From a virus: a stretch of 64,000 nucleotides of DNA. Below, in pieces: positions 2,116 through 61,232 of the stretch. A program made the translations under genes and the position numbers. The stretch lies in IMG/VR virus record IMGVR_UViG_3300035138_000114. One strand, given 5' to 3'. The notes beneath the pieces are model-generated. The model made no database searches and was not told the DNA's origin. It saw only the letters and a program-made list of their open reading frames with translations. Every line of letters starts with the position of its first letter. Position 1 is the first letter of the stretch.

Positions 2116-2142
2116 GATTGAAAACATCTCAAATTATCCGTG

Positions 2143-2274
2143 TCGGCGTGAAGACGCGCCAATTCGATACAGGTACGGGCACTCCGCGAGGACGTTCCCA
2201 CTTGCGGACCCTGTCACCCCTGTACCGAGGTCAGGGAACCGTACTCCCCACAGGTTGGGGAGCCTTATAGGACT
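2143..2274 (+). ncRNA. structured repeat element R1, copy 1
   Basis: Near-identical to 3283-3407, 9094-9240 and 24714-24861(-); covarying stems. Confidence 0.55.
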
Positions 2275-3269: not shown

Positions 3270-3282
3270 TCCGCTTATCGGG

Positions 3283-3407
3283 ATAAGGACGTGCCGTATG
3301 GATGCAGGTATTGACACCCTGCGAGGACGGTCCCACTTGCAGGCCCTGTCACCCTTGTATCCAGGTCAGGGAACCGTACTCCCCACAGGATGGGGAGCCT
3401 TACAGGG
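3283..3407 (+). ncRNA. structured repeat element R1, copy 2
   Basis: GCGAGGACGGTCCCACTTGC...GGTCAGGGAACCGTACTCCCCACAGGATGGGGAGCCTTACAGG core. Confidence 0.55.
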
Positions 3408-3484: not shown

Positions 3485-3665
3485 GTCGAAAGAAAGCCCC
3501 TTCTATGGCTTTAGCCAAGGGATGAATTTCGACAAAAATTTCTTGATTTTTTAAAAGCGTTGGGGCGTCAACGCATTGGGTAAGGCGGTGTTAGACATCC
3601 ATTGAGTGAGGCAACCGCTGCTTGACCCCAGAATCCCAGGTGCTTCAGCCCTGGGAGTACGTCAA
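3485..3665 (+). mobile_element. non-autonomous IS200/IS605-family mini element (left-end and right-end hairpins, no ORF)
   Basis: Left end AAGCCCCTTCTATGGCTTTAGCCAAGGGATGAAT; right end GAATCCCAGGTGCTTCAGCCCTGGGAGTACGTCAA, typical IS605/tnpB right end finishing in TCAA. Confidence 0.65.
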
Positions 3666-9103: not shown

Positions 9104-9240
9104 CCGGTTATCGGCGTGAAGACGCGCCACACGGATGCAGGTACGGACACCCTGCGAGGACGTTCCCACTTGCAGGTACGGACACCCCTGTACCCAGGTC
9201 AGGGAACCGTACTCCCCACAAGATGGGGAGCCTTACAGGA
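9094..9240 (+). ncRNA. structured repeat element R1, copy 3
   Basis: Longest copy; begins GACTTCATAGCCGGTTATCGGCGTGAAGAC, overlapping the queD stop. Confidence 0.55.
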
Positions 9241-21690: not shown

Positions 21691-22740
21691 TCATGCGGCG
21701 ACTATAGGCTGCCGTACTCCCTTCTGAAGAATGTTTTTCGCCCCGTTCCAGTCAGCATCAAGTTCGACGCCGCAGGTTCGGCACTGAAACCGTTCTCCTT
21801 TCCGAGAGAGCTTGTCCCTGATTCCGCAGTCGGAACAAGTTTGAGACGTGTATGCGGGATCAATGAACGTCATTGAGATGCCCTCGCATTCACAGCGATT
21901 CGTCAGGCGTTCCAACACCAACGGGTACGTCCAGCGTTGGAGCTTGTTATTAAAGGATTTCCGAATTTTGCCTTTTGATTTGTGTTTGACAGACTTCAGA
22001 TTTTCAACTACCACCGTCTTTACATTCTCAAGTGGAAGCGCATTGACCGTCTGGTTGACAAACTGATTGCGCTCCGTCAAGGCACGAAGGAAGCCTTTGC
22101 TGCCTTGCTGCTTTCGGGCGATTTTCTCGGCATACTGTTCAAAGTCCTTGCCGAATTGTTGACCGTCAGAATTCACCAGCAGCTTTTTATACCCGATGTC
22201 GAAACCTTTCACTGTCCCGGTTTTCTTGGGAGCCGGAGCCTGTTTCTGGAAATACACATCTGCCCAAAAGCCCTTTGCGTTCACTCGGATACGGAGGCTC
22301 TTCTTGAGTGTCCAGCCCTGTTCAAGGAAGCGATTGAAGTGAGCATGTTTCTGGGTCGGAATCTGAAGTTTCAGCTTCTTGCCGATGGAGGACAGGGTAA
22401 TCCAGCAGTCAAATGAATTGACATCCTGCTCAAGCTCAACAAAGCGGCTGTCCAGTTCCATCACACGCTTATTGAAGACGGGTTTTGTCTTCTGCTCCTT
22501 CTTCCGTTGTGATTTGACAATAGCAAGGGCTTGTTTGGCGGCGCACTGCTTCATTCGAGCGGAGAGATAGGTATCAATCCAGGCGGTGTCTTTGACAAAG
22601 GAGCCGGAAAACTGTTCTTGCTCCCACAGGTCGTCAATGCAGAGATTGACCACACGGTTGTACTCCGTGCTGATGTCGAGCAAGGTCTGTTGTTTGCCGA
22701 TATTCGCGTTATTGAGATTGAGCGTTGTTTTTCGTATCAT
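21691..22740 (-). CDS. tnpB: IS607 TnpB RNA-guided nuclease
   Basis: GFDIG, VVVENL, TSQTCSDCG..CRTCG, DADWNGAKNIL; all three RuvC motifs and the Zn finger present. Confidence 0.92.
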   Translation of the reverse strand: MIRKTTLNLNNANIGKQQTLLDISTEYNRVVNLCIDDLWEQEQFSGSFVKDTAWIDTYLSARMKQCAAKQALAIVKSQRKKEQKTKPVFNKRVMELDSRFVELEQDVNSFDCWITLSSIGKKLKLQIPTQKHAHFNRFLEQGWTLKKSLRIRVNAKGFWADVYFQKQAPAPKKTGTVKGFDIGYKKLLVNSDGQQFGKDFEQYAEKIARKQQGSKGFLRALTERNQFVNQTVNALPLENVKTVVVENLKSVKHKSKGKIRKSFNNKLQRWTYPLVLERLTNRCECEGISMTFIDPAYTSQTCSDCGIRDKLSRKGERFQCRTCGVELDADWNGAKNILQKGVRQPIVAA

Positions 22741-23302
22741 CTTGAAGGTCTTTGATCAATTGTTCAGTTTTCCGTTTACAGCGGCGTTTTCCGTATATTC
22801 TGGCACAGAAGGATGTCACTAAGCTGATAAAATCTTGCATCAGATCTTCTTTGTCGTTTGCTGCCGGGTTGATCACTTCAAGCGTACATCCATGTCGTTC
22901 CAACAGAATCCGGATCGGATTGATACCGAATCGGGCGAAACGGTCAGTATGCTCAACAACAATTCGTGTCATCTTTGGATTCGACAACATCTTGCAGAAT
23001 TTAGGGCGTGTGTCATTCAGGCCAGAGGCGCATTCTTTAATGACTTCTTGCACAATATAGCCCTTCGCCAGACAGTAGGAGGTCAGCCGTTCAGCCTGTC
23101 GGTCAAGATTATCCCGGTTTTGAGAGGAAGACACTCGCGCATAGCAGACGACATACTCTGGTTTGGCTTGTTGCTGTGGTTCCGGGACAATAATTGTCCC
23201 GGATTCTAATTGATACGCTTCTGGAAGCTGCCCTTTTTTGAACAGGTTCCAGGCCGTCTGATAACTGACGCCTTGCCGTTTTGCCCACTGTGATAATTTC
23301 AT
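22709..23302 (-). CDS. tnpA: IS607 serine-recombinase transposase
   Basis: MKLSQWAKRQGVSYQTAW MerR-like HTH; YARVSS..Q...L.RQ; E.ASGLN..RPK; DRFARFG. Confidence 0.93.
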   Translation of the reverse strand: MKLSQWAKRQGVSYQTAWNLFKKGQLPEAYQLESGTIIVPEPQQQAKPEYVVCYARVSSSQNRDNLDRQAERLTSYCLAKGYIVQEVIKECASGLNDTRPKFCKMLSNPKMTRIVVEHTDRFARFGINPIRILLERHGCTLEVINPAANDKEDLMQDFISLVTSFCARIYGKRRCKRKTEQLIKDLQDDTKNNAQSQ

Positions 23303-23543
23303 GATGACACTATGGAATAGTGCTATCATATAGTCAAGTTATTTTTATATAAAATCCTATGTTTTTTTTTATATAGAACTAATATTCATATACGATACCT
23401 TCCTGCGCCCCGAACTACCCCACGAACCGCTTAGAAAATCAGCGGTTCTCATCAGTTCCGTTTCTGCGAACGGTTCTTGATCTTTCTCCGAACCGTTCCG
23501 ATTCTTAAACCAACCACGAACTGTTCAAAATTTCATTTTTTGA

Positions 23544-23626
23544 CGCTCTGAGAGAGCCATATGGCGACGATCTGGACACGTCCCCTATGAAGATAGGGGT
23601 TGACTGTCCAACGTCTTAAAATCGAA
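23544..23626 (+). repeat. R2 dispersed repeat
   Basis: CTCTGAGAGAG..CCCCTATGAAGATAGGGGTTG..TCTTAAAATCGAA. Confidence 0.6.
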
Positions 23627-24496
23627 GGGAGAGAGCGGATTTTCTGGATTGGACAGTAAGATTTCCCAGTATTCTTGAGACTCATGGGTTAACTTCGCTA
23701 CGGACGCATAGAACCGCCCTACTAACCCGGCTGTAAACGTTAACACGTCTTGCTCTTTATCCTTAATCAACGGTCGTAAATCAACCGCATTGATCACGGA
23801 TGTCAACGGAACTCCCGTTACCTGGGACACTATCGCCGCATTGACCCGCCGACGTAAAACAAGTCCTTCCAATAATCCCGCGTCCTGGGTTGCATAGACC
23901 TGAATTAAGGACATGCCTAACTCTTCATGCCCGCTTACATCAAAACATGCCCGTAAATCGGGAGGTATCCAGTCCATGCTACGCCACCCTTCACACCCGT
24001 AAACATATTTCGGGCGAATCGCTTCAGGTAACCGTCTTACGGCATCGACCACCGCCTGACAGACCTGAATGTGATGGGGATGCCCGTCTGCCGGGTCATG
24101 CGTGTAAACAGTCTCTGGACGGGCAAGCTCAAGATACCCCGCAATCTGGTCAACAACCATTTCTCCCTTAAAATACGGGGAATCCTCAGCTTTCAGTCCG
24201 ACAACCGACGCATAGTTCCCGTAATTAGCGGCATGACACTGTTCTTGCCACCTCAACCGGATAAAGTCACTCTTGCTAAACTCCGCATACCGGGGAAGAA
24301 TCGGACACCCGATCCCGTTCGTACAAACTATCCCCGTAAACCACCTGCTCTCATCCTCGAAACACGCCACAACCCCCGGAAACATTGATAACTCCAAATC
24401 GTCCGGGTGTGCGGCGATCCCTACATCTGTAGTCATTGATAATGCCGTCTGAAAACTTCTTTCATACGGACAAAAGATGTTTCCTGAATACTCCAT
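23585..24496 (-). CDS. PIG-L/LmbE family deacetylase
   Basis: AAHPDDLE, TNG.G, R..EQ..AA, YTH.P.DGH.HH. Confidence 0.8.
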   Translation of the reverse strand: MEYSGNIFCPYERSFQTALSMTTDVGIAAHPDDLELSMFPGVVACFEDESRWFTGIVCTNGIGCPILPRYAEFSKSDFIRLRWQEQCHAANYGNYASVVGLKAEDSPYFKGEMVVDQIAGYLELARPETVYTHDPADGHPHHIQVCQAVVDAVRRLPEAIRPKYVYGCEGWRSMDWIPPDLRACFDVSGHEELGMSLIQVYATQDAGLLEGLVLRRRVNAAIVSQVTGVPLTSVINAVDLRPLIKDKEQDVLTFTAGLVGRFYASVAKLTHESQEYWEILLSNPENPLSPFDFKTLDSQPLSS

Positions 24497-24713: not shown

Positions 24714-24861
24714 GTCCTGTAAGGCTCCCCATCCTGTGGGGAGTACGGTTCCCTGACGTCGGTGTTGGGGTGACAGGGTCCGCAACTGGGAACGTCGTCG
24801 CGGAGTGCCCGTACCTGTATCGAATTGGCGCGTCTTCACGCCGATAACCGGCTATGAAGTC
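24714..24861 (-). ncRNA. structured repeat element R1, copy 4
   Basis: Reverse-complement copy; carries a compensatory G-C to C-G change relative to copy 1. Confidence 0.55.
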
Positions 24862-27302: not shown

Positions 27303-27400
27303 TCTGGCTTCATGAGAGAGTCATATGGCGACGATCTGGCTATAACCCCTATATTTATAGGGTTGACGTGCTGACAGTCTCTGGCGCAAGGTAAATCGAA
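27303..27400 (+). repeat. R2 dispersed repeat
   Basis: GAGAGAGTCATATGGCGACGATCTGG..CCCCTATATTTATAGGGTTGAC, close to the 23544 copy. Confidence 0.55.
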
Positions 27401-30420: not shown

Positions 30421-30976
30421 AAATCCCGTTGTACGGCATGAACATGGAAGAAATGAATTTGTCTATGTAGAGGACTCCAATGAAACCGATTGTAGGGGAA
30501 TCATACACGATACAAGAATACCTTAACATGTTGCCGGATTTCCGTCAAGCGGTACTTCGCTTTCAACGTCAAATTTTAACCGGTTGTAAAACAGGAGATA
30601 AAATAAGCATGTATCTTGTAAAAGACTTGTCAATAGGGGAATTACAACGGTTTGAAGAGTCTGTTAAAGCAGGGAAAATATTTTAATGGAGGTCATTATG
30701 ATTGTTTACAAACAGTGGTTGAAGATCACCACAAAACGGAAGAAAGAAGATCAAGAGCCATCTAACACCCGATTACTTTGTGATGGTTGGTTTCTTTTCG
30801 GGGTTATTCCGTTATATATCCGCCGAAAAAATCTTGATCTTCCGTCTGTTTAACATGAATATACGCCAAAACACCGTTATTTGGGCAACTGGGATAGTCC
30901 AGTTTTGCCGGGGACTTCTAAAACGCATAAAACAACGAATTTTCCCGGAAAAGCCCGAAAAACAAGAGGAAGAGTC

Positions 30977-31798
30977 ATGAAAACGTCAAAAACGTTGTTT
31001 ATCCTTACCTGTGTCCTTGTAATGGGCATTTTGGTAGCCTGCGCGGAGCTATTAGATGACATCGGAGATTTTATTGACACATTACCTGATCCGGAAACGA
31101 CACCGACACCTGGACCAGAAGAAACGCCGACGCCGACAGAGACCCCGTTACCGACTGTAACGCCAGAGCCAACCGAAACTCCTGAGATTCCGACTCCCAC
31201 ACCGACCGCTACGCCGGTGCCACTCCCCGATAATGTGTTTTTTATCGGATTTGATCAGGCAGAAACACGGTATGGAAAAGTTAAAGACGGGGTTTATACT
31301 ACAGAATCCCGCTGGTGGTATGCACACTGGGAGATTCCGACAACGGCTTCCGGGTATATCGAATTTACGGCAAAAGGCTTTCAACAGGACGAACTATACG
31401 GGGGAACAGAGTTTAAGAGTGTTCTGGTGTCAATGTGGTCGGGCGAAGACGGCTATGATTACGCCAATGCTCCGTATATCTTTGAAATTCGGAAATATGG
31501 CTTTATCAAAGACCGTCCAGACGCTTCAAACGCCTTTAAAGCAAAGATCAAAAGCCGGGGAGAGTGGGAAGAAAGCGGTTACGTCACCAGAGATTGGGAT
31601 CCCGAAAAAGAATATCATTTCCGGATCGAGTGGGGGAATTCAACCGTTTTAGTGTTCAGAGACGGAGAGCATGTCTTGACAGGGCAGTATAATGGGCCGT
31701 TTGCTCCGACAAAACATCAAATCCAACTGGGAGCTAACCCACGGCGTTATGCCCCAAAAGGTCTGGTTATTTCAAACGTAATCATCGGGAAAAAGTAG
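30977..31798 (+). CDS. lipoprotein with Pro/Thr-rich linker and beta-sandwich (LamG/ConA-like) domain
   Basis: Signal peptide with LVAC lipobox; (PTE)n linker; YHFRIEW..V.V.RDG. Confidence 0.6.
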   Translation: MKTSKTLFILTCVLVMGILVACAELLDDIGDFIDTLPDPETTPTPGPEETPTPTETPLPTVTPEPTETPEIPTPTPTATPVPLPDNVFFIGFDQAETRYGKVKDGVYTTESRWWYAHWEIPTTASGYIEFTAKGFQQDELYGGTEFKSVLVSMWSGEDGYDYANAPYIFEIRKYGFIKDRPDASNAFKAKIKSRGEWEESGYVTRDWDPEKEYHFRIEWGNSTVLVFRDGEHVLTGQYNGPFAPTKHQIQLGANPRRYAPKGLVISNVIIGKK

Positions 31799-31799
31799 G

Positions 31800-31905
31800 C
31801 TTTCAATCTCTAAAAAGAGTTTGGAGGAAGAGTCACACTTCCCACGCTGGACGTGAAATACGCCACATAGCCGGTCAGCCTATAGGCTTTCCGGGTACTT
31901 GTAAT
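31800..31905 (-). ncRNA. stand-alone natural single-guide RNA scaffold (copy A)
   Basis: 32-nt core identical to the tracrRNA; ends in CTCT-TTTT-AGAG-ATTGAAAG. Confidence 0.7.
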
Positions 31906-31909
31906 TCCC

Positions 31910-31939
31910 ATATTACATACAAGTAATATCTGTTGTCAA
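31910..31939 (-). promoter_or_regulatory. sigma70-like promoter of copy A
   Basis: TTGACA-18 nt-TAATAT, same layout as the tracrRNA promoter at 40441-40470. Confidence 0.6.
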
Positions 31940-32126
31940 GAAATTTTTTATCTTGCACGAAAACTTCCATTTTTTCTTCACCTGATATTGCCCGTCAATA
32001 GGAGAATTTGGGGCGATCTTTCAAAAATACCTTTACAGAATTGCTAAAGTTTTCTTGACAAAAGTTTAGCAAAGATTTATCCTCTTCTGTCTATGCCCTT
32101 AAAATGGGCTAACTCAGGAGAAAATT

Positions 32127-38517: not shown

Positions 38518-38889
38518 TCATTCTCCCTCCTGGTTTTCTTCTTGTAGCGGGCACCAATAGTTTCTCAAGAACTGGGCAAAAGTTGTCGAAATACAGAAGT
38601 TAATAACAGGCGAAGCCGGGATGGTTCTCATCTGTTTAACCTCTCCCCCAGTTTTATTAAAGGTTTCAATGTCAAATCGGGAATGTGCCCGCCGATTTGT
38701 TAAGGAAATGACTCCTAAATGTTTCCATGTAAATTTAGGAGATTCAAACAATAGTTCCACAAGTGCTTGTGAAAAAGCCCCGATTACCTTCTTGACCGTC
38801 CCTCGGGGAAGGCCAGTTTTTTCCATTATCCTGTCAACTACCGGTTTACTTGCTTCCCATTTTTTGGGATAAATTGGAATATCCTTCAT
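38518..38889 (-). CDS. HU/IHF-like DNA-binding protein
   Basis: V..I..KTGL....V..VI..F...L.E.L, LG.I....R, IPA...I.F pattern. Confidence 0.65.
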   Translation of the reverse strand: MKDIPIYPKKWEASKPVVDRIMEKTGLPRGTVKKVIGAFSQALVELLFESPKFTWKHLGVISLTNRRAHSRFDIETFNKTGGEVKQMRTIPASPVINFCISTTFAQFLRNYWCPLQEENQEGE

Positions 38890-39515
38890 AATGTTTTATT
38901 CCTTTCTTTCGCTTTACTTTCAGTCTCTTTCAGAGATTTCTTTCTTTTGCGTAAACGGTGTAACCCGCTGTCCTCGATACGTCTTACCCATTCACGGCAA
39001 ACTGAAAAAATCCGGCTTATTTGTTCTAACGTGTAGCCTTTATCCTCTCCAAATGAAGACAAAAGCCGATACCGGGCTAAAAGGCAATAAATCTCTCTGT
39101 TAACTCCGGGAGTTTTTTGCCAGTATTGACAAGTCCGGTAAGGACACTGTTCTTTCCGAAATTCGGCATGGATTTTCTCAATGGGTAATAATAAAATTTC
39201 ATCTCTCACCGCCCGTGAACACTTGTAAATAATAGAAACCCATGTCCGGTTTTCCCGTTTCATCAAAGGTTCTTTCTGTCCGAAGTTCAGAGCAAAAAGA
39301 TCAACATAAAGCACATTGAAAGAAGTATCTAAAGTAATAGGAAGTTTCCCTAGTCTAAACGGATTATATTGATCTTTGGATAATTCAATCGTGTCTTGTG
39401 TTGTATAGTCAATGATTATGTAATTTTGGAAGCTCAAATGTGTCCGTGTCGGGAGAGAACATATTTCTTGGTTTCTATTAAGAATCATTTTAAAGAAGTA
39501 TCCAAAGTCTTTCAA
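38886..39515 (-). CDS. sigma70 region-4-like HTH protein with Cys motif
   Basis: YTLEQIS.IFSVCREWVRRIE..GL.RLR; CPYRTC..W...C; start may be ATG at 39488. Confidence 0.7.
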   Translation of the reverse strand: MKDFGYFFKMILNRNQEICSLPTRTHLSFQNYIIIDYTTQDTIELSKDQYNPFRLGKLPITLDTSFNVLYVDLFALNFGQKEPLMKRENRTWVSIIYKCSRAVRDEILLLPIEKIHAEFRKEQCPYRTCQYWQKTPGVNREIYCLLARYRLLSSFGEDKGYTLEQISRIFSVCREWVRRIEDSGLHRLRKRKKSLKETESKAKERNKTL

Positions 39516-40128
39516 TCCCTTTCAGAGATTTATTAGCTTTTCTACATGGAAATAAACCGGGAACGCCTAACAGACCAATATCTTTCAATCCCTTTCAGAG
39601 ATTTATTAGCTTTTCTACGCACGTTAAGGAGAAAATTATGAACCAATTACTTCAACCTTTCAATCCCTTTCAGAGATTTATTAGCTTTTCTACCAAATCT
39701 ATAATCTGGAATCTGCTATCTATCAGCGGCTTTCAATCCCTTTCAGAGATTTATTAGCTTTTCTACTTGGGCGTCCTGGCGAGGGCGCCTTTTTTATGCC
39801 CCCTTTCAATCCCTTTCAGAGATTTATTAGCTTTTCTACGCGATTGTTGACGGGCAAACAGGGGATATTCTGGTACTTTCAATCCCTTTCAGAGATTTAT
39901 TAGCTTTTCTACTCAATGACGGGCTATTCCCGTCAACGGTATGGGACTTTCAATCCCTTTCAGAGATTTATTAGCTTTTCTACTCAACCGGGCTTCCTGG
40001 ACAGTTAACGAATCCCGGTCCTTTCAATCCCTTTCAGAGATTTATTAGCTTTTCTACAGCATTACAAGCAGAATTTGCCGGGTATGAGAAGCTTTCAATC
40101 CCTTTCAGAGATTTATTAGCTTTTCTAC
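39509..40128 (-). CRISPR. CRISPR array: 9 identical 37-bp repeats, 8 spacers of 34-38 bp
   Basis: Repeat on - strand GTAGAAAAGCTAATAAATCTCTGAAAGGGATTGAAAG; + strand starts 39509, 39582, 39657, 39730, 39803, 39876, 39947, 40021, 40092; orientation inferred from the ATTGAAAG 3' end. Confidence 0.98.
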
Positions 40129-40335
40129 TGCTTGTTTCTATCTGCCCGGTATCACGTAAGTCAATTTCCTGTTTCCGAGCACCTGGCACAAATCTCTAAA
40201 AATGCTGTCAAAGAACTATAAATTTTGTCTTTTTAAGGGTACAAATGCCTTATATATAGTCTCCGAGCAATCATTTTGTCTTAGCCATGTTTGTAGGCAG
40301 ATACAGAATGTTGCTTTGTCAGCATCCCCTGCTCG

Positions 40336-40436
40336 GCAATCTCTGAAAGCGTTCGGAGGAAGGGAAAACCCTCCCACACTGGACGTGAAATACGCCACAT
40401 AGCCGGTCAGTATCATACTTTCCGGGTACTTGTAAT
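40336..40436 (-). ncRNA. tracrRNA (copy B)
   Basis: Anti-repeat CTTTCAGAGATT (40338-40349) complementary to repeat AATCTCTGAAAG; promoter TTGACA(40465-40470)-18 nt-TAATAT(40441-40446). Confidence 0.8.
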
Positions 40437-40466
40437 TCCCATATTACTTGTATGAAATATCCGTTG

Positions 40467-42302
40467 TCAAGAAATTTCTGATAATTTTATTATTTTAGGT
40501 GAGCGTAAACAAGCAAGGAATTGGCTACGATCCCCTTGCCAATTTCCGCTTTTTACGGCGATATTAGCGGCTCCGTTACAATCGGCGTTAACATGAGTCC
40601 CGTTATTTGTCTGGTATAGTCCTCGTTTCCTGCGTTTTTTTAATGATTTGGAAAATGTATGGAGTTCGTTGCTTCCATCATACGTAGGAATCTCCATATA
40701 ATCCAAAAAAGAACATAAAGATGTGAAACTTTCTTCATGTTCAATATAAGCTATTCCTTCCGGCTCGCAGGCATATTTTAGATAATTCCGTAACTGTAAA
40801 AACGGGATTTGCACAAAATTTTGAGTATTCCGTTTCCCTATATTTACACCTTGTTTCCATCCGACGTTCACCCCAACAACAACCGTATTGATGTGATGCT
40901 TAACGCAGTAATCTACAATATATCTGGCAACCTGTTGCATGATATATTCAATTTTGGCATTCCGGCGACGGGTGATTCGGTAAAGCTGCCGTGACTGTGG
41001 AAATTTGTGAGATTGAGTCGAAAACGGGACAACCAATTGTTGCCATTGCTTCTGTTCATCTCCTGTTAAATGACATGCTAAAATGAGTTTTTGCGCTGTG
41101 GCAAAAGACTGTCCACAAAGTTGTTTATACCGTAATAATAGGTCATCAGGAAGAACGGTTTGTAAAAGTTGGATACTCTCTTCAGTTACACTATATTTTG
41201 AACGAGGATCTTGATCTGCCATACATTCCCGTAATCGGGCACATTCTTTATTCCAAAACCAATTGATTGATTTGACAGAAGATCCTTTGAATAAAAACGC
41301 GAATGGAGTCTCCATGTCCACACAGGCCGCAAGATTATTAACCCCAAGATCAATTCCCATTATCCTTATGCTGTCAGGCGTTGTAGTTGTCGGAACAGAT
41401 GCTTGGTATGTCAATGATACCGAAAACTCTTCACTCCGAAATTTCGGAGTAATTTGAAGTTTCCGAATATCATTAAATTGAAGCCACTCAGGGATCGGGA
41501 TACAAATTGGTGTAAAGCCTTTATCTTTAAGCGTTTTTGAAAGGCTTAGGCGTAATGTTCGGTCATCAACTTTAACGAACCCATTCCCTATTTCGGCGAT
41601 AATTCGTCCGAATGGTGGAGCTTGATCACTTCTATGGTTTTCGCCTAAATAATGCTGGTCTTTTTTATATCCTGGAATTCGTGGAGCATCACGATACTTC
41701 TTCTTTTTTTGCTCTGCCCGAAGCTGTAAGAAAGAAAGGTGGTGCTTCTGCAAATATTTCCAGATACTTTTATCATAATTCCGTATATCTTTAACAGCTT
41801 GATCTACCATATAATGGGCGGTTTTGCTAGATATTTCAAAGTGAACCCGTGTAGACTCCCGGTGTCGAAGCACTTTTGAATCTAACGTATAGGTTGTCAG
41901 AAACCTATCGTAATATTGGCAAGATTCAAAGATTTTCTCTCCATACACGGTCATTTCAGACCGTGATAAACACTCTTTGAGGTGTTCTTCAAACTCTGAA
42001 CGGAATACCTTGCGCTTGGTAATTGGACGCAATTTAGCCCGTATTTCTTCAGGAACCGCCAGTTGTGCGATCTTATTTTTTGACAATGAATATCGGAGTG
42101 TTTCAAACTGCTCTTTACATGGGCATACCAGGCAATCAGGGCAGTCAGGGATTATTGACGGGTTAATATAATGCTGCCGACAACACCATAATGCCGCATT
42201 ATAGATTCTTGCGGCATGGATACAGAGTAGTGTTAAATGTTCCCGGTCTTGTTTCGACAGATTTGTTAAGGCAATTTTAATGGTTCTTGCTGCTAATTCC
42301 AT
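40467..42302 (-). CDS. compact TnpB-derived type V CRISPR effector (Cas12-like, 611 aa)
   Basis: RuvC-I IMGIDLGVNNLA; RuvC-II position VVVGVNVGWKQ; NFVQIPF..L..L.Y; EESFTS; RuvC-III NADCNGAANI; adjacent tracr and array. Confidence 0.85.
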   Translation of the reverse strand: MELAARTIKIALTNLSKQDREHLTLLCIHAARIYNAALWCCRQHYINPSIIPDCPDCLVCPCKEQFETLRYSLSKNKIAQLAVPEEIRAKLRPITKRKVFRSEFEEHLKECLSRSEMTVYGEKIFESCQYYDRFLTTYTLDSKVLRHRESTRVHFEISSKTAHYMVDQAVKDIRNYDKSIWKYLQKHHLSFLQLRAEQKKKKYRDAPRIPGYKKDQHYLGENHRSDQAPPFGRIIAEIGNGFVKVDDRTLRLSLSKTLKDKGFTPICIPIPEWLQFNDIRKLQITPKFRSEEFSVSLTYQASVPTTTTPDSIRIMGIDLGVNNLAACVDMETPFAFLFKGSSVKSINWFWNKECARLRECMADQDPRSKYSVTEESIQLLQTVLPDDLLLRYKQLCGQSFATAQKLILACHLTGDEQKQWQQLVVPFSTQSHKFPQSRQLYRITRRRNAKIEYIMQQVARYIVDYCVKHHINTVVVGVNVGWKQGVNIGKRNTQNFVQIPFLQLRNYLKYACEPEGIAYIEHEESFTSLCSFLDYMEIPTYDGSNELHTFSKSLKKRRKRGLYQTNNGTHVNADCNGAANIAVKSGNWQGDRSQFLACLRSPKIIKLSEIS

Positions 42303-42771: not shown

Positions 42772-42875
42772 CTCTGGCGCTCAGAATACCCTCCAAAATC
42801 GTTTGAAATTTCTTCCGAATATCTTCATAGGGGTTGGCGTTCCGAGTCCTTAGAATTGAAATCTGGTCGCCATTT
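42772..42875 (+). repeat. R2 dispersed repeat (degenerate)
   Basis: CTCTGGCGCTCAG...CATAGGGGTTGGC...TCCTTAGAATTGAAAT. Confidence 0.45.
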
Positions 42876-42919
42876 TTACGTCTGGACATTACTATACCCG
42901 AAACCTGGGCTTTCGTCTA

Positions 42920-43348
42920 CTAAATACCTAATGTGATTTTGTTAAATTGAGTTTTGACGGCAGCATACGCCTCATTCCAGAACTTATTTTCCCAGTTCAC
43001 GGGTTTTGTTCTTGCTTTCCCTTCTTCTTGATCCCATTGGTATTCCAAAACGCCCAAATTCGTAGGCGATCCTCGTTTTACATGAAAGATCACCACACAA
43101 GAGTCAAGCTCTGTACCTTGACCTTCTTTCGTATAGCAATCCAGTCCAAAGATTTCTTCTTCAAAATCAAAGCGGCTGACAAGCTCCGTTACCCGGCGAA
43201 ACATCTCATCCGGTTGGCACATAAACGATTGAACCTCAAGCGTTCCGTCCGATTTCTTCAGAATTCCCGGAAACGGGTAACAGCCATTCTCATCCATCAT
43301 TCTTTTAGCCAAACTGACAAACTGTTTTAATACACTAATTTCTCCCAT
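42920..43348 (-). CDS. hypothetical protein
   Basis: AAGGAG RBS, 142 aa. Confidence 0.55.
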   Translation of the reverse strand: MGEISVLKQFVSLAKRMMDENGCYPFPGILKKSDGTLEVQSFMCQPDEMFRRVTELVSRFDFEEEIFGLDCYTKEGQGTELDSCVVIFHVKRGSPTNLGVLEYQWDQEEGKARTKPVNWENKFWNEAYAAVKTQFNKITLGI

Positions 43349-47568: not shown

Positions 47569-47644
47569 TGGAGATTGGGGCGGGATTTGAACCCGCGATA
47601 AGGGATTTGCAGTCCCCTGCCTTAAGCCACTTGGCGACCCAATC
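47569..47644 (-). tRNA. tRNA-Cys(GCA)
   Basis: GATTGGG/CCCAATC acceptor stem, U discriminator, encoded CCA, anticodon loop CT-GCA-AA, GGTTCAAATCC T-arm. Confidence 0.93.
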
Positions 47645-49384: not shown

Positions 49385-50254
49385 TTAAACCGGATAAAGT
49401 TGAACCATTTTGATAAGTTCCCCGTCATATCGTTCATCCAGGGCACAGGTGTCTATTTCTGCAAATTCAAAGAACGCTTTCCCTTTTGTATCGAACCGGA
49501 GATCAACAGTACTGCCCGCCGCATGGATAAGTGGAATGTCATATTTCATTTCTTTCCGAGTCAATCTCTTATCCACATGTCTATGACCGAATAGAAGGAT
49601 GTCTACTTTTCCTGCAATAAGGTCTTTAAACGCCCGATCATCCTTCAACTTCAAAAAGAAGTTGTAATAAAATGGATGATGGTGAAGGAAAAGTACCGTA
49701 TAAAGGTTCGGACGGTCAAACTCTTCTAAATATGCGGCGATTTCTGCCCGTTGTTGCTCTCCTATCTCTCCTTGAGCAAAAAGCACGTCAAATCCGCCTA
49801 ATTCACCCGCCATTGAGTCAACTGACATAAAGACTACGCCGTTATCCGGATCTCCTGGGTCTACTATTGTATAAACAACGGGGAAGTCAGGACAGGAAGT
49901 GCTATTCATAGCATAAAAACCAAATCGTTCTAAGGCGATTCGTATTGCCCAGTTACCTTTAAACCCGTAATCATGATTACCTGGGCAGACATACACAACA
50001 AAGCCCACATTTCGGAGATTACGGAGTAGTTCACGGAGTCTCTGGTATTGATTTTGAGTGCCGCTTTCCACAATATCCCCGGTAATGATGATAATTGGGA
50101 GCATCTTAAATTCCTGATCTTCAGGAATCTTCCCGTTTTCAAGACCATGATCAAGTCCTGCATACATCTTAATCAAGCCCTGTACCAGCCACTCACATTT
50201 TAGCAAGTTCCATCCTTGCCCGATATGTAAATCCGACAAATGAATTATTTTCAT
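49385..50254 (-). CDS. calcineurin-like metallophosphoesterase
   Basis: HLSDLH, TGD, PGNHD, HH, GHRH. Confidence 0.88.
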   Translation of the reverse strand: MKIIHLSDLHIGQGWNLLKCEWLVQGLIKMYAGLDHGLENGKIPEDQEFKMLPIIIITGDIVESGTQNQYQRLRELLRNLRNVGFVVYVCPGNHDYGFKGNWAIRIALERFGFYAMNSTSCPDFPVVYTIVDPGDPDNGVVFMSVDSMAGELGGFDVLFAQGEIGEQQRAEIAAYLEEFDRPNLYTVLFLHHHPFYYNFFLKLKDDRAFKDLIAGKVDILLFGHRHVDKRLTRKEMKYDIPLIHAAGSTVDLRFDTKGKAFFEFAEIDTCALDERYDGELIKMVQLYPV

Positions 50255-50802
50255 TGCTTTTGTTCCTCCTGATCTTCTTCTGAATCTCCAAACCCCACGA
50301 TCTTCAACCATTCTTCGGCAGCCGTATGAAGTGAAGATGAAGAACAGATAAAAGGATTTTCACGATTTAACTGTTGACAAGCTTTTTTTGCTAACTGAAC
50401 ATGGAACGGAAGAATTGTTCCGCCAGGACGTCCTTCAAAGTTCTCAATTGCCCCGTGAAGTAACGCCATAGACCGGGCAGTCGGTTTTGTAAATCCGACT
50501 CCAAGAAACCATTTATACCGCCAGAATGTCCCGGCATTCTCTTGTTTCCAGACTGGATCATCTCTATGTGGTTTGATAAAGAGAAAAAGCAATGCCGGTT
50601 GACAGAGCAAGTCATATACCCAAAATCCCTGATGGCGGCAGAAACCAGGACGATAACATCCCCGGAAAAGTTCTCTGAATAATTGCCGTCCTGTTTGTCG
50701 CCAACGATTTCGGTTTTTGACACTACATTCAAGGGCGTTTCCAGCAATTTCAAGAAACTGGTTACGATAAAATTCTAACGTGTCCCATGTGTTCTTTTTC
50801 AC
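50251..50802 (-). CDS. hypothetical protein
   Basis: GAGG RBS with GTG start. Confidence 0.5.
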   Translation of the reverse strand: MKKNTWDTLEFYRNQFLEIAGNALECSVKNRNRWRQTGRQLFRELFRGCYRPGFCRHQGFWVYDLLCQPALLFLFIKPHRDDPVWKQENAGTFWRYKWFLGVGFTKPTARSMALLHGAIENFEGRPGGTILPFHVQLAKKACQQLNRENPFICSSSSLHTAAEEWLKIVGFGDSEEDQEEQKQ

Positions 50803-50834
50803 GGCATTTCCTCATCTTGTGATAGGGGAAGCTT

Positions 50835-50970
50835 CTTTCAATCCCTTTCAAAGGTTCTTTATTTGGCAATCTCTGAAAGCATTCGGAGGAAGGGAAAACC
50901 CTCCCACACTGGACGTGAAATACGCCACATAGCCGGTCAGCTTATAGACTTTCCGGGTACTTCTTATCCC
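50835..50970 (-). ncRNA. stand-alone natural single-guide RNA (copy C: tracr fused to repeat 3' half)
   Basis: Nearly identical to the tracrRNA, then a 17-nt loop, then TGAAAGGGATTGAAAG (exact last 16 nt of the CRISPR repeat). Confidence 0.8.
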
Positions 50971-51475
50971 CATAGTTGACAGCCGTGCCCGTATCTAATT
51001 CTGATACCGGGCGTTCCTCTCTATCATAGTCCAGTATGTGGGGTCTCCATTCAAGTTCCTCACCATCAGAAATGTCCTCTTCTTGCATCCGATCCGTCCG
51101 TTTTAAGGTAAACCAACGGGTACACTCGTTTTCCTGTTCTGTCCGGATCGAAGCGTTTTTCATCAGGCGATGGAGCCCCATTGTTGCCTCAATTAATGTG
51201 TCATATTCAAATTTTTCCGATCCATAATCCACGCTGGTCATAATGACCGTATGCGGCTGTAAAAGCTCCTCTTCTGCCTGAAACCCGAATTGTACCGGGG
51301 TTTCTGCCTTTAAGATTTCTTCTGATGTGAAAACTTCCTTCTTTCCATGTAAGATTTGTTTATTGACGGGCGAAGCTCCCCAAAAAACTGTTATTTGTTC
51401 TCCTGTTTGATCCCATTTACGGTGAACTTCGTAAACTATCCCGTCATAAATGAATTTTGTCCCGATTAAATTCAT
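50942..51475 (-). CDS. hypothetical protein; 3' end overlaps sgRNA copy C
   Basis: AAGGAG RBS; stop lies inside the scaffold. Confidence 0.55.
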   Translation of the reverse strand: MNLIGTKFIYDGIVYEVHRKWDQTGEQITVFWGASPVNKQILHGKKEVFTSEEILKAETPVQFGFQAEEELLQPHTVIMTSVDYGSEKFEYDTLIEATMGLHRLMKNASIRTEQENECTRWFTLKRTDRMQEEDISDGEELEWRPHILDYDREERPVSELDTGTAVNYGDKKYPESL

Positions 51476-51511
51476 ACGTTATAATCTCCTTTTCTCTGTT
51501 AAAAAATACGT

Positions 51512-51610
51512 CTCTGGCTCTCTGAGAGACGCCAGAAGACACGTTTAAAGTACAACCCCTATGAGTTATAGGGGTTGGCTCTCCGAGTCTTTACAATCGA
51601 AGTTTGGCGA
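51512..51610 (+). repeat. R2 dispersed repeat
   Basis: CTCTGGCTCTCTGAGAGACGCCA..AACCCCTATGAGTTATAGGGGTT. Confidence 0.65.
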
Positions 51611-60158: not shown

Positions 60159-60768
60159 ATTTCCCTCCTAAGGGCCATCAAGACAATAGTTTCGGGTTGT
60201 TATGTCTAATATAAAAATATATAATGAAAATGTCAAGCTATTTTTTTATTAAAATTGTCCGCCTTGCGGGGAAGGGGTTTTGAGACGTGATCCTTAGAAA
60301 TTTTTTACCATCTAAAACGTCCAAATTTCGATTCTAAGACGTTTTTATTTCCGCCTGACTATTGGTATTCCCATACATACCAAAATCCCGAAATCTTCCA
60401 TGAACCGGGCAATTTATTTTTTCACGTTTTATCTCCGAACAGGGCTATAAAAGCGTTATATTTCGCCGCCCCTACCTTTCTTCCCTTGTTTTCTTTTCTG
60501 ACGGGAGAACCTGGGAGCCTGTCATGATTAGATACCCGTAGAATACCCGATAAATACTCTCAAGTGGCAGTTGACAAAGCTTTACCCCGTCAAGATAGAG
60601 GAATGAGACTGTTTTTCCTTGCGTGAACCTGCCTCCGACCCGTTTTTCACGGCATTCGAGGTCTCCGGATCGAAAGTTCTGGCATAATATCCCCGGAGCG
60701 GTTATTTCGATTTCTCCCCGTTGTATACACTCGTTTAAAAACGTCCTTACTGTTCTCATAATTTAACA

Positions 60769-60855
60769 CTCTGGCGCTCTGAGAGACGCCACACGCTGTT
60801 TTATAGACCCGTCCCCTATGAGTATAGGGGTTGGCATCCCCAAATGCTTAAAACG
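60769..60855 (+). repeat. R2 dispersed repeat
   Basis: CTCTGGCGCTCTGAGAGACGCCACACGCT..CCCCTATGAGTATAGGGGTTGGC. Confidence 0.65.
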
Positions 60856-61133
60856 TTTATCTGTAAATGTCGGTTATCGTTTCTGCTTTCTCTTTGACCG
60901 TAAAACGGACAACACAGTGTTGGAAATGTTTCCCGTATGTCGATCTGTAACGCCTTAAAAATCGTTGAAAGTGCTGGTAATCCCGAAAATAAACTTCACT
61001 GGCGGTATCACTGATTTCAACGGGCCAATACTCGGAGTCAGGCTCTACCGTTACCCGTTGCTTCTTCTTTTTTTGCTTTTTTGAGGCTGTTGTCGGCTGA
61101 AAATTTAATGGTAATTGACACATAAAATTCCCT

Positions 61134-61232
61134 CTCTGGCTCTCTGAGAGACGCCACACGCTATTTTATAGGCCCATCCCCTATGAAGATACAGGCACGG
61201 CGTTCAAATCCTTAGAAACGAAATTTGAACGC
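61134..61232 (+). repeat. R2 dispersed repeat
   Basis: CTCTGGCTCTCTGAGAGACGCCACACGCT..CCCCTATGAAGAT..TCCTTAGAAACGAAATTT. Confidence 0.65.

Follow-up and report, generated by a model that had tools for sequence, protein, structure and literature searches.

Why does a phage that possesses a CRISPR-associated nuclease with its own trans-activating CRISPR RNA (tracrRNA) plus array also carry, 8.5 kb from the start of the nuclease gene (42302), another copy of the tracrRNA scaffold fused to a part of the CRISPR repeat, and what could such an RNA be aimed at? This copy, designated element C, was found in a 64,000-nucleotide (nt) stretch of viral DNA, referred to below as the window, which is the reverse strand of bases 2942-66941 in G000, the 132,054-bp IMG/VR virus record IMGVR_UViG_3300035138_000114 (estimated completeness 95%). 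The DNA runs containing the window represent wetland and marsh metagenomes; the comparisons of alleles rest on a handful of short metagenome contigs, with near relatives reached via protein-cluster look-ups. In our assessment, it is somewhat probable that C represents an omegaRNA-like, stand-alone guide element, which the phage's TranC-like effector would use in trans against scaffold-free relatives, either for homing or for exclusion.

Anatomy of Element C

Element C is a tracr scaffold joined in cis to the repeat-derived handle AUUGAAAG via a hairpin that replaces the repeat:anti-repeat duplex. Counting from the 5' end, it contains the terminal sequence AACTATGGGG, hairpin 1 (CCGG...CCGG), an invariant core with the motif UUUCA, hairpin 2 (GGGAGGG-UUUU-CCCUUCC), hairpin 3 and the handle GGAUUGAAAG. 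In hairpin 3, CUUUCAGAG (50879-50871) pairs with CUUUGAAAG (50853-45), forming 9 bp, including one G-U pair, around the 17-nt loop AUUGCCAAAUAAAGAAC; the final 16 nt of C (TGAAAGGGATTGAAAG) correspond exactly to the 3' end of the repeat, and a weaker similarity to the repeat extends 5' into the loop. The scaffold is 92% identical over ~105 nt to tracrRNA B (40340-40450), the copy located next to the effector gene (92.1% over a 75-nt core), so C is as close to tracr B as is the orthologous tracr of a related phage (93% identity). A search with an nhmmer profile of the scaffold found C with E = 5e-25 and only four copies in 132 kb, which excludes chance similarity, and the fold predicted for C coincides with that of tracr B cofolded with the CRISPR RNA (crRNA) handle; those predicted for two other copies, A and D, agree as well. 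On sequence grounds, this anatomy is like that of a TnpB omegaRNA, with a scaffold, a fixed 3' boundary and a guide supplied by the flank.

A preliminary description, made from the window alone, had reported on the minus strand a near-identical tracr copy at this distance from the cas gene, with the 9-bp stem, the 17-nt loop, an exact match to the repeat's final 16 nt and an adjoining guide, and had read the whole as a single-piece version of the resident effector's tracr:crRNA pair; all of this was borne out. The end coordinate assigned to the copy needed correction, as the comparison with orphan E, found in a relative, shows that the similarity runs upstream to 50977. Nor is C a lone orphan, since A and D are present in the same genome in addition to E.

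The guide-equivalent flank AAGCTTCCCCTATCACAAGA matches only its own locus in the genome; outside it, a match of 27/28 was found in the scaffold-free contig L010, and contig L009 matches only from guide nt 16 onward.

Occupied, Empty and Deletion Alleles

The ENA contig L010 contains the C-empty allele. It has no scaffold, and the open reading frame (ORF) of 177 amino acids (aa), which lies upstream of C in the window, reads ...GATACGGGTAC-TTTCATC-AAGCTTCCCCCATCACAAGATGAGGAAACACCATGA, so that the ORF has the guide sequence (19/20, with an rU:dG wobble expected at the mismatch) as its coding end, and its stop overlaps the next ATG. The final 13 residues, FIKLPPSQDEETP in L010, are replaced by the scaffold-encoded AVNYGDKKYPESL in the window. 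This comparison of alleles shows that C was acquired by the phage lineage as a discrete insertion, located where the 177-aa gene ends, and the DNA to its right thereby became the guide; the left boundary of C is placed after GGCTGTC because C and E have the same 5' end, (A/T)ACTATGGGGAT.

The empty allele also puts two features of the preliminary description in another light. The overlap of the scaffold with the stop of the upstream ORF is present, the TAA (50944-50942) being located in the loop of hairpin 1, but it does not resemble the overlap of omegaRNAs with tnpB ends, since the insertion replaced the native last 13 codons and the frame now runs into the scaffold. Similarly, the guide does end 12 nt before the GTG start of the downstream ORF and may be called its 5' untranslated region, but it has come to be so only through the insertion, as it is coding in the empty allele.

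A C-deletion allele is represented by the JGI contig L009 and by contigs of two marsh runs; it is in-frame, skips 50815-51080 (266 nt), is located between CAAGA(A/T)GAGGA repeats and lacks the scaffold position together with 15 of the 20 target bases. The D-empty alleles L012 and L013, from two JGI samples, read ...GGATACGGTGTT up to the insertion point and ATGCGATACAAAGG immediately after it, with a target 100% identical to the guide, and D is a precise 125-nt insertion with no target duplication and with GTGTT kept on its left. The window itself carries the empty allele for E, where AATGTC followed by CAGACGTAAAAATGGCGACC (42890-42865) matches the E flank over 36 nt; at the position of E, the window has 32 other bases (within 42865-42920, which also includes the intact TGTC and target), comprising a small hairpin flanked by GGTAT..AGTA repeats. 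The search for an empty allele joining the upstream ORF to the guide, recommended in the preliminary description, was thus successful in L010, and perfect matches were found in the empty alleles of D and E.

The bases located 5' of the target are GTGTT in the D-empty allele, ATGTC in the E-empty allele and CTGTC in the left flank of C, versus TCATC in L010. The reading of a target-adjacent motif (TAM) at the empty junctions, also proposed earlier, therefore gave TGTY at two of the three sites and a different sequence at the third, and TGTY is only tentatively regarded as the target-adjacent motif; the probability of such a pattern arising by chance is ~1e-3, a rough estimate since the motif was defined from the same data. 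The pattern is reciprocal, in that C and D occur in G000, which has the E-empty site, and the sample containing L011, where E is located, additionally yielded a D-empty contig and a C-deletion contig, which may or may not belong to one genome. As far as can be judged from these alleles, the population data are what a homing model requires, with occupied alleles lacking the motif and empty alleles presenting both motif and target.

Two further similarities were observed around these sites. The C empty site ACGGGTACTTTCATCAAG (L010) resembles ACGGATATTTCATACAAG (window 40446-40463), the interval that separates the -35 box from the -10 box ahead of tracr B, at 16/19 positions (shuffle p ~0.009), and the sequence GATACGG is found again in the flanks to the left of C and of D.

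Conservation of the Scaffold Family

Four copies of the scaffold are present in G000, namely tracr B and the orphans A, C and D, and the fifth orphan, E, is located in the related contig L011. The older sister copies D and A show 79% and 82% scaffold identity, respectively. Decay without preserved base pairing, a prospect raised in the preliminary description, was not seen: over seven copies, 93.3% of the cells in hairpins 1 and 2 are paired, versus 31-62% when the partners are slid, four pairs have changed on both sides, and the observed pairing was reached by 1/500 shuffles. The structure of the family, judging from this alignment, is under selection, with the pairing kept through compensatory changes.

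Hairpin 3 varies in length and sequence from copy to copy, comprising 12 bp in B, where it is formed in trans, 9 bp in C, 8 bp with a tetraloop in D (CUUUCAGA-GAUU-UCUGAAGG), 7 bp in E and 4 bp in A, and the scaffold is joined to the repeat at a different point in each copy; all copies, nevertheless, end at AUUGAAAG. The guide of D begins at the ATG of the next gene, and the guide of A is antisense to the end of the plus-strand ORF 30881-31798. Orphan A is kept at the same site in a more distant relative, where the neighbouring gene is 85% identical at the protein level.

A core helix GGCGU/ACGUC was considered and found to be unsupported, as two changes in copy E break it. A UUUCA:UGAAA pseudoknot may exist, although its bases do not vary among the copies. 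The nhmmer match at genome positions 49790-49843 (E = 0.024) was taken as noise.

The scaffold core was found in at least three contexts in marsh metagenome contigs; it had no match in IMG/VR, JGI metagenome contigs or GTDB genomes. The CRISPR repeat had no match in IMG/VR, a 19-mer of the repeat gave four single matches in GTDB, which equals the chance expectation, none of them with a scaffold, and the pattern of the C empty junction was not found among the metagenome contigs searched.

Resident Effector and CRISPR Array

The nearest relatives of the 611-aa TnpB-derived effector (Table 1) are TnpBs of 400-440 aa, several of them on phage-like contigs, and the top match is 51% identical over the RuvC half. 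A protein search in IMG/VR revealed no close relatives of the effector, and the 3' region of the nearest TnpB gene (L006) contains no convincing similarity to the scaffold. The catalytic motifs RuvC-I GIDLG (D318) and RuvC-III NADCN (D574) are both kept; the position of the canonical RuvC-II glutamate is occupied by G477, candidate alternative glutamates (E521-E524) are located downstream in IEHEESFTS, and the protein is without the C4 zinc finger. The replacement of Glu by Gly in RuvC-II characterises the 'RIIr' rearrangement, which is predicted to be active and occurs in viruses (PMC10691335), and the effector nuclease with its RIIr arrangement is likewise predicted to be active.

The -35 box of the tracr promoter is overlapped by the effector stop codon, and the anti-repeat of tracr B pairs with AAUCUCUGAAAG of the repeat, with a 12-nt complementarity and a cofold energy of -46.9 kcal/mol. 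In the related contig L011, whose effector shows at least 90% identity, tracr and repeat are unchanged, but the spacers, at least nine in number, are all different; the array is therefore live, with turnover of spacers. The phage genome contains no cas1. By architecture, the effector and the array are a TranC-like, TnpB-derived type V system.

In L011, ~170 extra bases are found between the effector stop and the tracr promoter (L011:5290-5440), and the effector comprises 618 aa versus 611 aa in the window. A sigma-70 region 4 gene (window 38886-39491, minus strand) begins 18 nt past the last repeat, with its start inside a pseudo-spacer, and near its 3' end (window 38912-38943), the coding sequence AAATCTCTGAAAGAGACTGAAAG matches the repeat at 20/23 positions; associations of sigma factors with TnpB are known (PMC10691335).

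Proposed Mode of Action and Alternative Explanations

If C functions as a guide element, it would be transcribed by read-through from the upstream gene, since it has no promoter of its own, and the transcript would be trimmed and then taken up in trans by the 611-aa effector, the protein that the tracr and the array would serve as well. The locus of C itself would be protected because the scaffold end (GAAAG) occupies the position of the target-adjacent motif. A co-infecting relative without the insert, in turn, would present both motif and target and would be cut, after which the element would be copied into the cut site when this is repaired from the occupied allele (homing), or else the rival genome would be lost (exclusion). 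The arrival of the element at its site might be explained either by an IS200/605-type insertion 3' of TGTY, carried out by a transposase acting in trans, or by recombination between spacer and protospacer.

A bolder version of the same idea seems to us possible but doubtful. Relatives sharing a TranC-like nuclease might differ in guide elements of 125-143 nt (C and D in G000, E in the related phage), with every element directed against the other phage's scaffold-free allele, so that these elements would act as guide-only gene drives between phages; co-infection would convert or eliminate the rival allele, the C-deletion allele would be an escape variant, and the split and unsplit guides for one effector would represent a living intermediate of the transition from omegaRNA to tracr/crRNA. 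If true, such a drive would be an RNA-guided counterpart of intronless homing, with the guide alone as the mobile unit.

Several observations speak against the use of C as a homing or excluding guide. No sigma70-like promoter was found ahead of C on its strand, no other copy has so weak a hairpin 1 (3 pairs, including a U-G), and the intactness of C alone is no sign of selection, because C is young. The hairpins at the two ends of C are unlike, with CCGG...CCGG on the left and the unrelated CUUUCAGAG... on the right, and the 132-kb genome contains no match to Y1 TnpA (PF01797), though the host might supply a TnpA. A Pfam search revealed four other TnpB genes in the genome, one of the IS607 type (349 aa) and three of 371-389 aa. 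The sole C-empty allele has TCATC in place of TGTC, the insertion of C is only presumed to be precise because 7 nt at its left junction are not homologous to L010, and the left junction of E is not clean, with 32 nt differing. No protospacers were found for 18 spacers (from the window and L011) in the genome, related contigs or GenBank phages, nor for three spacers scanned against IMG/VR, and the spacers thus yielded no PAM. Finally, no RNA run is present among the runs containing the locus, and the alleles come from short metagenome contigs, which may not all belong to one phage genome.

Part of these observations would also be expected if C were a recent non-functional by-product of transposition of the tracr/repeat module or of illegitimate recombination, neither processed nor used. 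We hold this to be unlikely, but it must be taken seriously for C itself, which is young, promoter-less and provided with the weakest hairpin 1; moreover, C is present in one lineage only, its insertion cost the upstream gene its native C-terminus and abolished a stop/start overlap between two genes, the lack of RNA runs agrees with an unused sequence, and TnpB elements and orphan right ends abound in the genome. What argues against such a by-product is the behaviour of the other copies and alleles. The older copies D, A and E keep all helices via compensatory changes, as well as the exact 3' boundary; three of the three testable orphans adjoin sequences that are intact targets in relatives, and the deletion allele removing exactly the C target is common. 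An alternative offered earlier is gene regulation; C would then be a regulatory natural single guide, comparable to tracr-L or scaRNA for Cas9 or to TldR guides, which would tune the 183-aa gene through the effector at the start region or through a cis action on the mRNA. The short distance between the guide and the GTG of ORF 50251-50802, the start of the D guide at an ATG and the sigma-factor-like gene following the array would suit regulation, but the guide is an ancestral flank that is coding in the empty allele and matches only its own flank, GAAAG occupies, at the locus of C, the position of TGTY in empty alleles, the RuvC kept by the effector is predicted to be active in rearranged form, and the guide of A is found at a convergent gene's 3' end, a place not suited to regulation. 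Regulation, consequently, was not upheld and is decidedly improbable.

A different origin with the same use is conceivable, where C, D and E would have arisen by crossover between a spacer and the protospacer of a rival phage, which placed tracr, leader and repeat next to the protospacer, and deletions then fused the tracr to the repeat at three points. Such an origin would explain the exact 3' boundary and the legitimate motif in the empty alleles, and it agrees with the junction to the repeat differing per copy (A is joined at GATTG, and the part of the repeat retained is ~29 nt in C and 18 nt in D), with the effector's last codons and the promoter still present in A and with the re-fusion of tracr and half-repeat documented for Sigma-TnpB (PMC10691335). 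The 5' end common to C and E and the clean 125-nt insert of D look, however, like a unit with fixed ends, and no remnants of a leader or spacers were found, which makes this origin rather improbable. Lastly, it is highly improbable that C is an assembly artefact, a chimeric join at a repeated sequence. Independent assemblies do break inside scaffold copies (L008, L014, L016), but the right junction of C is contained in the Logan contig L008, outside the IMG record, and the left junction is supported by a 177-aa protein with the scaffold-encoded tail that is on record from a Logan contig, although the run concerned, X1, may represent the same sample.

Other TnpB Genes and Features of the Genome

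The coordinates of the main features are given in Table 1.

Table 1. Features of the element C locus, the effector locus and related copies. Positions refer to the window unless another sequence is named.
Feature	Position	Strand	Remarks
Orphan element C, 143-nt stand-alone guide-RNA scaffold	50835..50977	-	5' boundary from homology with orphan E; 3' boundary from empty allele L010
Guide-equivalent flank AAGCTTCCCCTATCACAAGA	50815..50834	-	Coding 3' end of the upstream gene in scaffold-free relatives
TGTC adjoining the 5' side of C; candidate TAM or protospacer-adjacent motif (PAM), probably kept at the left junction	50978..50981	-	
Upstream ORF, 177 aa, no family match	50942..51475	-	Last 13 codons read from the inserted scaffold
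Downstream ORF, 183 aa, no family match	50251..50802	-	ATG overlaps the upstream stop (ATGA) in empty alleles
TnpB-derived effector, 611 aa	40467..42302	-	Pfam OrfB_IS605, Cas12f1-like_TNB; NCBIfam guided_TnpB, 103.5 bits
Promoter-like TTGACA-18-TAATAT (40470-40441), then tracrRNA B	40330..40470	-	Anti-repeat CUUUCAGAGAUU
CRISPR array	39509..40128	-	9 identical 37-nt repeats ending AUUGAAAG; spacers 34-38 nt
Orphan A	31780..31951	-	Promoter copy, copy of the effector's last codons, scaffold, collapsed hairpin CUCU-UUUU-AGAG, then AUUGAAAG
Orphan D	G000 104510-104634 (L004:1481-1605), outside the window	-	125 nt, between 248-aa and 81-aa ORFs
Orphan E	L011:2722-2850		Directly after a 142-aa ORF
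Empty allele for E in the window	42865..42888	-	TGTC, then CAGACGTAAAAATGGCGACC; perfect target
Three TnpB genes, 371-389 aa	G000 71523-72692, 92971-94119 and 123709-124824, outside the window	+, + and -	28-37% mutual identity

The four other TnpBs were considered as partners of the scaffold and rejected, being unrelated to the effector by BLASTP and having 3' flanks unlike the scaffold. An IS607-type pair is located at window positions 21691-23329 (minus strand), where a serine-recombinase TnpA of 206 aa (resolvase domain, residues 60-182) overlaps the 349-aa TnpB, which has a TNB domain and the DADWN motif; 44 nt of its 3' flank recur inverted 3 kb away. As regards this serine TnpA as a possible mobiliser of the scaffold units, no similarity was found between the ends of the IS607 element and the scaffold. 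The 3' flank of one TnpB gene has a 90-nt, 91% identical orphan copy at window 3576-3665, and that of another recurs at the contig end; since TnpB 3' flanks also have orphan copies, stand-alone right ends are a general theme of this phage.

The sole Rfam or ARAGORN match in the window is a tRNA-Cys (GCA) at 47569-47644 (minus strand). A 136-nt repeat family, 'R1', is found at window positions 2136-2271, 3271-3406, 9104-9239 and 24716-24851, with others outside the window; there are at least 8 copies genome-wide, with 77-100% identity, and one of them is located ~800 nt from element D. Another repeated module consists of a GC hairpin (TCTGGCGTCTCTCAGAGAGCCAGA-like) and the palindrome CCCCTAT-N-ATAGGGG and is found at window 51503-51607, 60760-60829, 61125-61228, 23529-23632, 27313-27362 and 42827-42866, upstream of several gene blocks, including the ORF interrupted by C and the target of E; it may be a terminator/promoter or operator unit of the phage.

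Significance and Comparison with Known Systems

The biological role of stand-alone omegaRNAs has been stated to be unknown (PMC10691335). The present locus, with an array and dispersed single-piece guides for one nuclease, offers a concrete and testable case for such a role, as natural occupied, empty and deleted alleles are available in related phages and reciprocal attack by RNA guidance, or homing, between relatives follows as a prediction. Guides of split and of unsplit architecture, found side by side for one effector, bear on the emergence of type V CRISPR from transposon RNAs, and the four natural single-guide designs, with hairpins of 4, 7, 8 and 9 bp, may be of practical use for a compact effector.

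Stand-alone omegaRNAs that work in trans with a compatible effector are on record (PMC10691335, citing Altae-Tran 2021), and PATEs also encode omegaRNAs, with homing by TnpB described too (bioRxiv 10.1101/2023.03.14.532601). Like the stand-alone omegaRNAs of TnpB/IscB and PATEs, element C is an effector-less scaffold located elsewhere in the genome, and its guide is the flank outside the right end. Unlike them, C has a CRISPR-associated effector with its own tracr and an array with turnover of spacers, in a phage, and the empty and occupied alleles occur between competing phages rather than sister chromosomes. It also differs from PATE and IS200/IS605 elements in the lack of a Y1 TnpA in the phage and in the dissimilarity of its end hairpins.

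TranC (transposon-CRISPR intermediate) systems (cited in PMC13639567, PMC13565253 and bioRxiv 10.64898/2026.03.27.714800) comprise a TnpB-like effector, a downstream array and a tracr, the latter two together representing a split right-end RNA (reRNA), and some of them are phage-borne (CauTranC9). The present system resembles TranC in having all of these components, but the effector is larger (611 aa) and has a rearranged RuvC-II. One TranC is said to be able to use both a crRNA and an unsplit reRNA, reportedly in work by Jin et al. that appeared in 2025 (Cell 188:6283). To our knowledge, no TranC has been described with dispersed natural unsplit guides that occur alongside an array and differ in presence among relatives.

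Regulatory guides consisting of a single piece are known from other systems: tracr-L of Streptococcus pyogenes Cas9 and the scaRNA of Francisella repress promoters via partial matches. Element C is, like them, a natural single-piece guide derived from a tracr-type scaffold, but its guide corresponds to the full flank and there is no motif at its own locus. In the Sigma-TnpB clade, a re-fused omegaRNA consists of the tracrRNA and a half of the direct repeat and serves regulation, together with a nuclease-dead effector and after loss of the array (PMC10691335). In both cases, the tracr is joined to the 3' half of the repeat and the 3' end of the scaffold is the same as that of the CRISPR repeats; here, however, the array is still present and the nuclease seems to be active.

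Homing endonucleases of T-even phages, through intron and intronless homing and marker exclusion, cut the element-free allele of a co-infecting relative, with their own allele protected by the disrupted site (PMC13565253). Element C would similarly target the element-free allele, its own site being disrupted, but recognition would be by an RNA guide, and the mobile unit would carry the guide and not the nuclease. Stand-alone omegaRNAs, PATEs and TranC have already been described, and what is unusual here is the partnership with an array-bearing CRISPR effector, the phage setting and the polymorphism between relatives.
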